A DNA stretch of 51,015 nt from a virus (IMGVR_UViG_2721755676_000003:1-51015), one strand, 5' to 3'. Counted from the stretch's first letter, positions 18,253 to 21,827 are shown. Numbers and translations are program-made. Notes: generated by a model not told the origin, from the sequence alone.

Positions 18253-18615
18253 GTGAATACATATCAAATCACTTTGCCCTGGCCGCCGAGCAATAACCGG
18301 TATTACCGGCACAACCGCGGGCGTACACACATTAGCGCTGATGGCGTTGCGTACCGTTATGCGGTCGCAAGTGTCATTCGAAGCGCCCGACTTAATATCC
18401 GCACGGCCGCACCACTCAAAATCCGTATTGAATGTCACATGCCCGACCGCCGGCGCCGCGATCTGGATAACCTGCAGAAGGCAGCTTTTGACGCTTTAAC
18501 CAGGGCGGGATTCTGGCTGGATGACAGCCAGGTTGTGGATTATCGCGTTGTGAAAATGCCTGTAGTTAAGGGCGGGAAGTTAGAACTCACCATCACCGAG
18601 CTGGAGATCGCATGA
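18253..18615 (+). CDS. rusA: Holliday-junction resolvase RusA
   Basis: [30 protein letters not shown]...[27 protein letters not shown]...[16 protein letters not shown] is near-identical to recalled E. coli RusA; GTG start chosen to match MNTY. Confidence 0.9.
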
Positions 18616-19445
18616 ACCTTGAAAACACCCTCAAATATCACTTCGCCAAATCGACAATGATTAGCGACTCTCCGCGTGCAACGGCGTCAGACTCATTAAC
18701 CGGAACGGATATCATGGCTGCGATGGGCATGACGCAGGAACGGGCAGCCTTGGGGTACAGTGCTTTTCTTGGGAAGATGGGTATCAGCAACAATGACCGG
18801 GAGAGGGCGATTGAGTTGCTGGCCCATTACGCGCTGACTAAGTGCGACCGGGTGGCTGCGCTGCGCAAACTGGATGCCGGGGTTAAGCCACTGGTGATGC
18901 ACCAGCTGGCCACCTTCGCGTTTGAGGACTATTCCCGCAGCGCCGCCAGCGTGAAGCAGTGCGATGGCTGCAATGGGGAAGGGTTTATTGACGCTGAGGT
19001 ATTCAGCATGAAGTCTCACACTCCGGCAAAAGATAAGAAGTTCGTGAAGATGTCTTTGCACATGGGCGCGGAGGATATTCGACCTTCTGAGTATGAGGTG
19101 CGTAGGCAGGTCATGGAGGTAGCGCGCGTTCTCTGCCCTCAGTGCAAGGGTAAGAAGGTTGTAAGTTGTGCCTGTAAAGATTGCCATGGACGCGGGAAAA
19201 CCGTTAATCAGGTTCTTACTGAACAGCAGGGTGTGCCGGTTCTGGCTGATTGCAAGCGCTGCAGTGGGCGGGGGTTTGAGCGAATTCCATCAACTGAGGC
19301 TTACGCAGCTTTAAGGGAGATAACGGATGCAATCAGCATCGATACATGGAAGAAATCTGTTAAGCCATTCTACGATCAGCTCATCACAAAGTTTGACATC
19401 GAAGAGGCCTGGGCTGATGCGCAGCTGAAGCAGATAACAAAATAG
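18612..19445 (+). CDS. Late antiterminator Q (Phage_antitermQ-type, zinc-binding)
   Basis: 277-aa ORF; N-terminus ([33 protein letters not shown]) and Cys cluster (CPQCKGKK...[10 protein letters not shown]) match recalled lambdoid Q proteins; followed by PR'/qut-like sequence. Confidence 0.8.
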
Positions 19446-19467
19446 GGCGTGAATTTATCGTGAACTA

Positions 19468-19515
19468 TTTACTTTTCCCGAATCTGTGGTAATTTTGCTC
19501 TAACGATGGGTTATT
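19468..19515 (+). promoter_or_regulatory. PR'-like late promoter with qut-like region
   Basis: -35 TTTACT, 16-nt spacer, -10 TAATTT, then CTCTAACGATGGGTTATTGCCTTCGTT, resembling recalled lambda PR' (TTGACT...TAAATT TGACTCAACGATGGGTTAATTCGCTCGTTG). Confidence 0.5.
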
Positions 19516-19525
19516 GCCTTCGTTT

Positions 19526-19558
19526 AAAGCCCTGCGGTTAACCCCGTGGGGCTTTTTG
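19526..19558 (+). terminator. Intrinsic terminator downstream of PR' (tR'-like, target of Q antitermination)
   Basis: AGCCCTGCGG-ttaacc-CCGTGGGGCT followed by TTTTT; stem includes two G:U wobble pairs. Confidence 0.5.
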
Positions 19559-19636
19559 CTTCTGGCGATTTAAGAATTATTGAAGAGTTAGCGCTGTAAC
19601 GGAAAAAAAAGTGATGCTTCGCCAGCTGCGAGCCTT

Positions 19637-19930
19637 TTAGTATCCATGGAAGAAGTAGCGAATCTTCAAGCCGATAAACTTCAACACTGGCCAGACATAA
19701 TGCTGGATTAAATATAGGACCGGTGGAACAACTAATGTCGCACCAGTTGCGCAGAGTGCGTATACCGCCGAGTCCTTTGCGATTAATGAGTAATTTAGGT
19801 TAAGTGTTTCAAGATTAATTACATTGGCTGTACTCGAACCTACAAATCCAGAGCCAAAAACAACCAGAAACACATAAAGTGATACTGTTATGAGCCTTAA
19901 AATTAACCGAATGTATTTCACGATGAACAC
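19637..19930 (-). CDS. Hypothetical small membrane protein (antisense to late leader)
   Basis: 97-aa hydrophobic ORF with GTG start and no clear RBS; could be spurious. Confidence 0.25.
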   Translation of the reverse strand: MFIVKYIRLILRLITVSLYVFLVVFGSGFVGSSTANVINLETLNLNYSLIAKDSAVYALCATGATLVVPPVLYLIQHYVWPVLKFIGLKIRYFFHGY

Positions 19931-20161
19931 CTGCTGATTGATTCATCGTTTTACACAAATGCCATCTGTTTAGCTAGCTTCTAGGTCGCTTGGTTCTAAA
20001 TAATATCCTGTTCATTGCCTTACCCTCACATCGCCAGCCTGTCGCTGGCTTTTTAATTTCAGGCTCCAGGAACCATCATCGACACGCCTTCTTGTTAAAT
20101 CGTCCCGACGGACAGACCCTTTTCAAACACACAGCACCCGCTAACTACGCGAGGTGAGAGT

Positions 20162-20386
20162 ATGTATCGCATGGACAAACTAACCACCGGTGCTGCTTAC
20201 GGCGCTTCAGCCGGTAGCATCCTAAACGGTATGCTGAATGCCTACAGTCCCGAGCAGTGGAACGCTATCGGCGTGCTGGTGGGCATCATCATCGCTGTAC
20301 TGACGTATCTGACGAATCTCTATTTCAAAATCCGCGAAGACAACCGCCGCAGCAGGAGCCGAGATGAACCCGACACTCCGAAATAA
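20162..20386 (+). CDS. Class II holin (phage 21 S21-type pinholin) with dual-start motif
   Basis: [19 protein letters not shown]...[17 protein letters not shown] closely resembles recalled S21; two Met codons (M1, M4) suggest antiholin/holin dual start. Confidence 0.8.
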
Positions 20387-20858
20387 GCTGGTGGGCGCCG
20401 TTGTTGGCGGAGCCAGCGCAATCACTATTGCAGCTGTGATGCTGGGCAATGCGGATGGACTTGAAGGAAGACGCTATTACGCTTATCAAGACGTCGTTGG
20501 TGTCTGGACTGTTTGCGATGGCCACACCGGCGCTGACATTCGCCGCGGTCACCGCTACACAGATAAAGAATGTGACGCTTTGCTGCAGTCTGATTTGCAA
20601 CAAGTAGCTAACGCCATTGACCCGCTGATCAATGTTCACATCCCTGAGCCAACCCGCGCCGCGCTTTACTCTTTCACCTACAACGTAGGAGCTGGAGCGT
20701 TTAGCAGATCGACGCTGCTGAAAAAATTAAATTCCGGCGACGTTCCGGGTGCATGCAAAGAACTGCAGCGCTGGACGTATGCCGGTGGCAAACAGTGGAA
20801 GGGGCTTATCACCCGGCGCGAGATTGAGCGCGAAGTCTGCGAGTGGGGCCAGAAATGA
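20364..20858 (+). CDS. SAR endolysin (signal-anchor-release lysozyme, GH24/T4-lysozyme fold)
   Basis: N-terminal Gly/Ala-rich weak TM ([20 protein letters not shown]) followed by lysozyme E...D...T catalytic region ([22 protein letters not shown]); start overlaps holin 3' end. Confidence 0.8.
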
Positions 20859-21316: not shown

Positions 21317-21392
21317 TTTTCATGCTGGCATTCAAGATCGTATGATTAAAGGGATTATTAATCATGCAAATGCGAAGTCAGAGGGACTGAAG

Positions 21393-21827
21393 ATGTCAAA
21401 CTACAGGATAAAAGCCGCTGGAAGCCATAGCGGTAACTTGAGCGCAGTGATAGACAAAGTGATTCAGGTTGCATCAGCAAAAGAAAACAAGGATGTGTTG
21501 GTTTTAGTGTCGCAAATCAACTTAGCGAAGGATGACAATAGAATTGAGCAAATCTTTGGCGAGCTTATGTTTGATCTCTTGGTGAAAAAAAGAGAAAACA
21601 TTGTTGGTATTGGGGATGTGAACTTTGAGGTCCAGCCTTATTCCTATGTCAAAAACAATACTCACCGAGCATTCGGCCGAACTGTCGTTGTTTTGAACCC
21701 TAGCACGCAAGACATGGATGCTTTTTTGCAGAAAGGTGATTCTACGGTTGATTGGATCGCTGTTGAAATACATTTGGACGGAGAACTCGATAGTTGGGTG
21801 CAGGCAAACCAAGCCTCCGACATTTAA
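21393..21827 (+). CDS. Hypothetical protein (moron between lysis and packaging modules)
   Basis: ORF with RBS GAGGGA before the internal ATG at 21393 (ORF-track start 21342); followed by a strong terminator; no motif recognised. Confidence 0.4.
   Translation: MSNYRIKAAGSHSGNLSAVIDKVIQVASAKENKDVLVLVSQINLAKDDNRIEQIFGELMFDLLVKKRENIVGIGDVNFEVQPYSYVKNNTHRAFGRTVVVLNPSTQDMDAFLQKGDSTVDWIAVEIHLDGELDSWVQANQASDI

Follow-up and report, generated by a model that had tools for sequence, protein, structure and literature searches.

In lambdoid phages such as HK97 and HK022, genes known as morons have been described, among them that for HK97 gp15, an inner-membrane protein that mediates superinfection exclusion (PMC3594210). 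Together with Imm of phage T4 and SieA of phage P22, gp15 represents a class of small integral inner-membrane exclusion proteins that lack enzymatic domains (PMC3594210, PMC10883804). The present analysis concerns a minus-strand gene for a predicted membrane protein of 94 residues, located in a viral sequence of 51,015 nucleotides (IMGVR_UViG_2721755676_000003:1-51015, the whole of which is hereafter called the window), within the leader of the late operon and between the gene for the late antiterminator, Q, and that for the holin. A moron of the late region is a well-known kind of element, and current understanding is not overturned by another; what stands out here is an unnamed protein family, the clear purifying selection acting upon it and an unusually invariant C-terminal tail. 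The overall account that we favour, and to which we attach moderate confidence, is that the gene is carried by a moron and encodes an accessory protein of the inner membrane that the prophage would produce in small amounts, that late transcription would shut off and that would act on behalf of the lysogen.

As with morons in general and gp15 in particular, the gene is an extra and putatively independently transcribable unit within an operon, has a G+C content unlike that of its neighbours and is patchily present among collinear phages; it is also predicted, like gp15, to encode a small inner-membrane protein. However, gp15 is encoded in the tail operon whereas the gene in the window occupies the late leader, and none of the PHROG families resembles its product in sequence. 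It further departs from the typical moron in that its candidate promoter is non-consensus and that, as a terminator, it has a single candidate, the back of tR', the intrinsic terminator of the short transcript from the late promoter, PR'. With regard to location, a parallel is provided by prophage DLP12 of Escherichia coli K-12, in which nmpC, on the opposite strand, fills the interval that separates quuD, the homologue of Q, from the holin gene essD, and borD, likewise on the opposite strand, lies just after the Rz gene rzpD. The nmpC or lc porin gene (DLP12 and PA-2) and bor (lambda and DLP12) are expressed in lysogens. Their products, an outer-membrane porin and a lipoprotein, differ from the 94-residue hairpin described here, being unrelated to it in both sequence and location.

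The original prediction, made from the nucleotide sequence of the window alone, described a hydrophobic, minus-strand open reading frame (ORF) of 97 codons (19637-19930) with only a GTG start and no clear ribosome-binding site, and left it undecided whether this was a real gene or a chance ORF. The ORF is present as described and contains no in-frame ATG; a GTG start is retained, but the conserved one is the second GTG (19919-19921), rather than that at 19928-19930. In alignments every homologue begins where the window has this second GTG, and the Citrobacter copy, as read from its alignment, has an in-frame TAG four codons 5' of the equivalent position. The GTG first proposed is made up of the last three bases of a Shine-Dalgarno (SD)-like AGGTG, which sits 6 nt 5' of the GTG at 19921 and is replaced by AAGGAGG in one relative (L010), so the statement that no clear ribosome-binding site is present does not hold. 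On this comparison, the corrected gene comprises 94 codons plus a stop and starts with GTG at 19921. GTG serves as the start codon at 60 of the 76 loci; the remaining 16, which belong to the distant Pantoea and Yersinia clades, use ATG. The length of the ORF is, by itself, within chance: when the leader was shuffled 5000 times, an ORF of at least 94 codons turned up in 395 cases (7.9%). Its significance rests on conservation, and the caution of the original prediction was justified when judged from the sequence by itself.

Conservation analysis, which had been proposed as one of the checks, found a conserved family in which the frame is kept and purifying selection is evident. Between the window and the Citrobacter copy there are 73 nucleotide differences, 40 of them at third positions, an excess with a chi-square p of 2e-4, and the ratio of non-synonymous to synonymous substitution rates (dN/dS) is 0.16; across all comparisons of useful divergence, the ratio ranges from 0.14 to 0.21. 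Among 48 unique flanking segments, conservation is highest at second codon positions (0.946), followed by first (0.925) and then third positions (0.857). Even where nucleotide sequences diverge by 44%, the frame is still open and, in six divergent homologues, it is the only one free of stops, the other five frames having 2-12 stops each. Copies are intact in 74 of the 76 loci, at amino-acid identities that go down to ~40%. The invariant C-terminal residues are encoded by differing synonymous codons in different lineages, and this substitution pattern, including the synonymous changes inside the invariant tail, places the constraint on the protein. By these comparative measures, the ORF is a genuine protein-coding gene under purifying selection, and chance as its origin is rejected. 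Thus, an ambiguous ORF has become a firmly supported gene with corrected coordinates.

The gene defines a small, previously unnamed family, everywhere annotated as 'hypothetical', in prophages of several enterobacterial genera. Approximately 75 homologues were found in prophages of Enterobacter, Citrobacter, Kosakonia, Pantoea and Yersinia. A protein search returned 19 clusters (at 90% identity) with E-values from 4e-51 to 2e-22 and identities from 97% to 56%, nearly all of exactly 94 residues and without indels, and when 1.84 billion representatives were searched exhaustively with a profile, only six clusters at 50% identity emerged; the remotest members, from Pantoea and Yersinia, are ~41% identical. 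The gene was not found in 5,426 complete E. coli genomes, even in a distant search mode, and among 50,697 phage records only PHB10 carries it, annotated there as a 94-residue hypothetical protein; a search for literature on PHB10 or on the 94-residue gene returned nothing. Additional copies reside in bacterial chromosomes. Intact ones occur in an Enterobacter adelaidei remnant (L015), next to genes for a DUF1294 protein, ttcA and dbpA, and at two loci beside frmRA (L012 and L016); a further remnant (L017) combines an intact copy with a porin gene and a fragment of Rz. In Kosakonia pseudosacchari (L018, 5612-7668), an intact stand-alone chromosomal homologue with 47% identity is flanked by genes whose products are DinI-like, contain an HSDR_N domain or, in the case of a lipoprotein, carry the C-terminal domain of TolA, and this locus may be either a prophage remnant or a defence islet. 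For the chromosomal copies L012, L015 and L016, dN/dS is 0.16-0.21. Such retention outside functional prophages fits, in a suggestive way only, a function independent of the phage's own lytic genes, and the invariant tail and the survival in decayed prophages make the gene a reasonable candidate for functional study.

Comparison with phages that share the same Q and holin but carry other cargo reveals the limits of the unit to which the gene belongs. Similarity to the window is lost at 19557-19578 and regained at 20121-20132, and because of these boundaries the exchangeable unit can be taken as ~550 bp that hold the gene, its promoter region and t2, a second terminator-like hairpin of the late strand. 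The G+C content is 0.396 in the ORF and 0.405 over 19561-20032, whereas Q has 0.528 and the lysis genes 0.536; viewed along the sequence, it is 0.37-0.41 over 19700-20000 and 0.53-0.59 on each side. Of 77 contigs in the IMG/VR database with a Q at least 90% identical to that of the window, 21 have the gene and 56 lack it, the others carrying different cargo. Two hallmarks of a moron, presence or absence among collinear phages and a deviating base composition, are therefore found, and the gene is best described as the cargo of a moron cassette that occupies the leader of the late operon, with tR' on one side and the holin gene on the other. Its surroundings are regular in arrangement and diverse in content. 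Within 51 IMG/VR loci, Q lies 3' of the gene and on the opposite strand in all 47 with a Q match, and the lysis genes lie 5' of it, again on the opposite strand, in all 49 with a lysis match; this same arrangement occurs beside four Q families (PF03589, PF06323, PF06530 and phrog_753) and next to several types of holin and endolysin, with at least four holin types represented. The original prediction had placed the ORF in a leader of roughly 600 bp, between the PR' terminator and the holin gene, where other lambdoid phages carry morons. Both points are upheld: the leader measures 601 bp, from the tR' hairpin and T-run to 20162, and the gap between Q and the holin gene is a hot spot for cargo, as the position of nmpC in DLP12 also illustrates.

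The stretch of ~550 bp from tR' to the ribosome-binding site of the holin gene can be viewed as a cargo slot which, in this phage group, accommodates many different small genes in either orientation, most of them coding for unannotated membrane proteins. Slots of this sort are a repeated source of genes for lysogenic conversion and for anti-phage functions. In the 77 contigs, the gap ranges from ~530 to 2150 nt, and the occupants are mostly without a family match; alternative cargo that was compared with PADLOC gave no matches. The occupants include a hydrophobic antisense ORF of 123 codons (L115:2162-2533) and, in another contig, an antisense ORF of 173 codons (L139:4586-5107), as well as membrane-protein ORFs on the sense strand (L150, L089 and L120), a gene for a YdgH/BhsA-like protein (L118), tRNA-like stretches and a methyltransferase-like ORF. 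Many relatives (e.g. L094:2440-2634, L129, L123 and L085) have, directly after tR', a sense-strand ORF of 63-65 codons (MxEGFYWIQHNGRIQVAYY...GDDxCxNGEAEV), which sometimes accompanies the 94-codon gene, is absent from the window, and has no match in Pfam or PADLOC. E. coli prophages share with the window only the tR' segment and the holin-proximal part of the leader. In the prophage of E. coli M37H (L003), three tRNA genes (Asn, Thr and Arg; 2234-2466) fill the same slot, and the holin leader shares with the window the region of the t2 hairpin (20013-20160, 92.7% identity). Since t2 is found 3' of this tRNA cluster as well, it appears to be a generic terminator of the leader.

That the product would be membrane-embedded, as the original prediction held, is borne out both by hydropathy and by structural modelling. 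AlphaFold2, when run on the family alignment, gave a helical hairpin (helices 2-36 and 44-91) with a mean pLDDT (the model's confidence score) of 80.3, and the product is thus predicted to be a 94-residue inner-membrane protein with two transmembrane (TM) segments (Table 1). Because basic residues occur at both termini (K2, R5 and R9; K81, K86 and R88), the positive-inside rule indicates that both ends are probably cytoplasmic. In such a topology, the N-terminal hydrophobic segment would probably act as a signal-anchor (cleavage of it as a signal is a further possibility), a loop of ~20 residues between the TM segments would be periplasmic, and the conserved second TM helix would run into a cytoplasmic tail. 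This tail, WPxLKxxGLKIRYFFHGY-COOH, is invariant, and the signature of the family reads IAK-x-SA...WP-x-L-[KR]-x-x-G-LKIRYFFHGY-COOH. At 41% overall identity there are 12 invariant columns, all of them in the C-terminal half, and dN is 0.11 for that half vs 0.25 for the N-terminal half.

The conservation around the gene extends beyond its coding region. Pairwise identity forms a plateau of 0.87-0.95 over 19632-19977, i.e. the ORF and 56 nt upstream, and falls to ~0.78 further upstream and to ~0.65 downstream, and the homology between the window and the E. adelaidei copy ends at 19979. Within the upstream part are two conserved blocks, TAGCTA and TAAAAC, separated by 17 nt whose sequence varies and whose length is fixed in the alignment; they have the pattern of -35 and -10 elements and constitute a candidate promoter of the gene. 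The identity in this region is 0.89, vs the 0.857 recorded at third codon positions, and in L023, the distant homologue from Yersinia, the corresponding position is taken up by a consensus promoter, TTACCA-18-TAAAAT. The short 5' leader of the gene showed no significant RNA structure (z=-0.2). Based on these elements, the gene would be driven by a weak promoter of its own, a modest SD sequence and a GTG start, and its transcript would run toward Q and PR' and stop at the back of the tR' hairpin, the Citrobacter equivalent of which abuts the gene's stop codon. The weak promoter, the modest SD, the GTG start and the orientation of the gene together suggest a low level of product from the repressed prophage, and it is from the orientation and the moron-like anatomy that expression in the lysogen is surmised. 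After induction, Q-antiterminated late transcription would run antisense across the gene and presumably shut it off, while t2, on the promoter side, would insulate the lysis genes from the gene.

Table 1. Coordinates of the gene, its predicted protein segments and the surrounding elements in the window
Feature	Position	Strand	Basis
Gene: 94 codons plus stop, predicted two-TM hairpin, invariant C-terminal tail	19637-19921	-	Homologues at 97%-41% identity, core without indels
SD-like AGGTG	19928-19932	-	AGGT core kept in all aligned upstream regions; AAGGAGG at the same spot in L010
Candidate promoter: TAGCTA (19976-19971), 17 nt, TAAAAC (19953-19948)	19948-19976	-	Two conserved blocks; putative
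Exchangeable AT-rich cargo cassette (moron): gene, promoter region, t2	19558-20125		Exchange boundaries; G+C
Strongly hydrophobic, poorly conserved segment	residues 4-30		Kyte-Doolittle mean 2.27
Polar, variable loop	residues 31-50		Family alignment
Conserved second hydrophobic helix	residues 51-73		Kyte-Doolittle mean 1.6; family alignment
Amphipathic tail, basic and aromatic	residues 74-94		Hydrophobic moment (muH) 1.5
Q-type late antiterminator, convergent with the gene	18612-19445	+	PF03589 E=1.4e-42; phrog_127 E=1.8e-101
Candidate PR': TTTACT, 16 nt, TGgTAATTT (extended -10)	19468-19495	+	Read directly from the sequence; putative
tR', intrinsic terminator at which the short RNA from PR' ends	19526-19560	+	12-bp stem, then T-run
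t2, second hairpin resembling an intrinsic terminator of the late strand, located past the promoter region of the gene and ahead of the holin gene	20033-20054	+	GCCAGC-CTGTC-GCTGGC, then TTTTT
P21-type class II holin, divergent from the gene	20162-20386	+	PF04971 E=2.8e-25
Phage lysozyme	20364-20858		Context gene

As to function, the most likely site of action of the product is the cytoplasmic membrane, to the benefit of the lysogen, and this is the least certain part of the favoured account. Superinfection exclusion, or some other membrane-level block to incoming phage, is a possibility that we put forward tentatively, by analogy with HK97 gp15 and P22 SieA. Imm, SieA and gp15 would be of the same class of gene and offer a plausible logic; however, there is no detectable homology to them, and the conserved part of the window protein is the predicted cytoplasmic tail. 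A number of observations weigh against the favoured account. The tail is conserved and the predicted periplasmic loop is variable, which is unexpected of a protein that meets an incoming phage tail in the periplasm. No significant family match was obtained in Pfam, PHROGs (which holds known exclusion families), NCBIfam, PADLOC or PDB sequence profiles, the best PHROG match being to a family of unknown function at E=0.35, so membership in a described exclusion family finds no support; and Foldseek searches against viral models and the PDB returned only generic helical hairpins (E>0.4). A scan of the window detected no consensus sigma-70 promoter for the gene, the proposed -10 element, TAAAAC, lacks the conserved final T, and no candidate for the 3' end presents itself other than the reverse of the tR' hairpin, which on the minus strand has a fold energy of -16.6 kcal/mol, is followed by UUU only and would be a weak terminator. 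Other cargo occupies the slot on either strand; the orientation of the gene is thus not special to the site, and the notion of a special design in its position or orientation is weakened. Finally, there are copies that seem to be decaying, namely one viral contig with a premature stop at codon 8 (L060), another in which the stop codon has been lost (L053) and a remnant in Enterobacter chuandaensis (L017, 5001-5282) with a relaxed dN/dS of 0.6-0.9.

The alternative that stands as a close second to exclusion, although we regard it as unlikely in absolute terms, is that the protein has no anti-phage role and is a small modulator of host physiology, its tail and second TM helix binding and tuning a conserved inner-membrane protein of the host, for example a protease, a transporter or a sensor kinase. 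MgrB, SafA and AcrZ are chromosomally encoded small membrane proteins that a modulator of this type would resemble. The concentration of constraint in the second TM helix and tail, with the low dN and the 12 invariant columns noted above, favours such binding; moreover, the gene remains intact in chromosomal remnants from which all phage functions are gone, and a YdgH/BhsA-like stress protein is among the other cargo of the hot spot. On the other hand, there is no homology to any protein of this kind, and the distribution of the gene is patchy and tied to prophages rather than core-genomic. Rather less probable still is that the favoured moron belongs to a new class of prophage membrane factor, wired by its position to the switch between lysogeny and lysis. 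With its gene set between two late-strand terminators and convergent on PR', such a factor would be expressed in the lysogen until, after induction, antisense transcription antiterminated by Q silenced it; its tail would block the genome entry or the lysis machinery of incoming phages, or guard the lysogen against leaky holin, and its mRNA might also pair, as an antisense RNA, with the late leaders of superinfecting phages that are homologous.

It is improbable that the product is a membrane-damaging toxin, whether an abortive-infection effector or a type I toxin-like or holin-like protein, that a weak promoter, a weak SD and a GTG start would keep nearly silent until specific conditions arise. 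The protein is small, with two TM segments, both ends predicted to be cytoplasmic and a basic C-terminus, in the manner of class II holins; its gene adjoins the lysis cassette and, in most loci, has a GTG start and a weak SD. Yet, the protein resembles neither the holin families nor the pinholin encoded next to it, distant members of the family have ATG and a better SD, the invariant tail of 18 residues argues for a specific partner and not for generic membrane damage, and the lone gene survives in remnants without an evident antidote. Type I toxins are small hydrophobic proteins, usually of <60 residues, with an overlapping antisense RNA gene. At 94 residues, the present protein exceeds their typical size, and assignment to a type I toxin-antitoxin system was rejected on that criterion; furthermore, a plus-strand small RNA (sRNA) that would be antisense to the gene's 5' end and terminate at t2 was sought over 19380-20200 with what are weak predictors, which returned neither a promoter-like site on that strand nor an Rfam family.

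We give even less credence to the idea that the transcript is the main actor and the protein secondary, i.e. that an antisense RNA pairs with leaky or incoming late transcripts of the same cassette to lower the expression of lysis genes, as a safety lock or a self-exclusion RNA. The invariable placement of the gene opposite the late operon in the loci with a Q or lysis match, bracketed by two late-strand terminators, is compatible with this, and there is a precedent in STnc6030 of prophage BTP1, which lies within late genes and mediates superinfection exclusion (PMC7067206). However, selection acts on the protein, with third positions the least conserved; the RNA would be complementary only to untranslated leader, the holin ribosome-binding site being >180 nt beyond the putative transcription start; and the gene persists where the late operon is gone. 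Lastly, a chance open frame in an AT-rich leader, with its conservation due to a nucleic-acid element, would be in keeping with the frame lengths reached by shuffling, the missing ATG and the missing consensus promoter, but can be dismissed in view of the dN/dS, the third-position bias, the one frame kept open as the others close in every lineage, the synonymous changes in the C-terminal motif, the copies outside any late leader in chromosomal remnants and the origin of the homologues, which are not assembly duplicates but come from five genera and 48 unique flanking segments.

Two further family relationships were considered for the protein. Two UniRef members are named 'DUF2523 domain-containing', and DUF2523 is the inovirus G6P/Ace family (10.1101/621433; 10.1101/2022.06.23.497286). 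Members of PF10734 (G6P, pVI and Ace) resemble the window protein in being hydrophobic, helical phage proteins of ~93-97 residues, and G6P of Pf3, with 93 residues, matches PF10734. Nevertheless, nine members of the present family gave no PF10734 hit in hmmscan at E<=10, the precomputed Pfam column was empty for all matches, and hhalign against an alignment of the Pfam-confirmed Pf3 G6P returned a probability of 0.2%; the name is hence unsupported. Class II holins, including the pinholin S21, are similar in size range, in having two TM segments with cytoplasmic ends (predicted in the present case) and in their basic C-terminus, but the window gene is oriented opposite to the lysis cassette and co-occurs with the various holin types mentioned above. 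A relationship to holins was rejected, there being no match to a holin family in Pfam or PHROGs and a probability of only 0.1% in hhalign against the adjacent S21-type holin.

The elements that flank the cassette are those of a late region. Besides its Antiterm domain, the Q protein of the window has DnaJ-like CxxCxGxG zinc-finger repeats (PF00684, E=1.4e-6, under the gathering score). E. coli prophages with a related Q match the segment at 19451-19555 with 92-94% identity; the candidate PR' within it was not flagged in a strict consensus scan, and tR' has a fold energy of -21.5 kcal/mol on the plus strand (z=-4.1). Together, the candidate PR' and tR' (19468-19560) would give a constitutive short RNA of ~58 nt. 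Short PR' transcripts can serve as regulatory sRNAs, an example of which is StxS (PMC7547250). In Rfam, the candidate PR'-tR' segment had only an insignificant match (ncS54, E=0.15). The t2 hairpin, with a fold energy of -11.1 kcal/mol (z=-3.7), is kept in PHB10 and Citrobacter; an analogous hairpin was flagged in the Yersinia locus, and in another locus (L019) a t2-like hairpin that the scan left unflagged was read by eye. Rz/Rz1-like ORFs are present 3' of the lysozyme gene, and just 3' of these is a plus-strand ORF of 161 codons (21342-21827) that has no match in Pfam, PHROGs or PADLOC; with a G+C content of ~0.40 and the position that bor has in lambda and DLP12, it is probably another moron.

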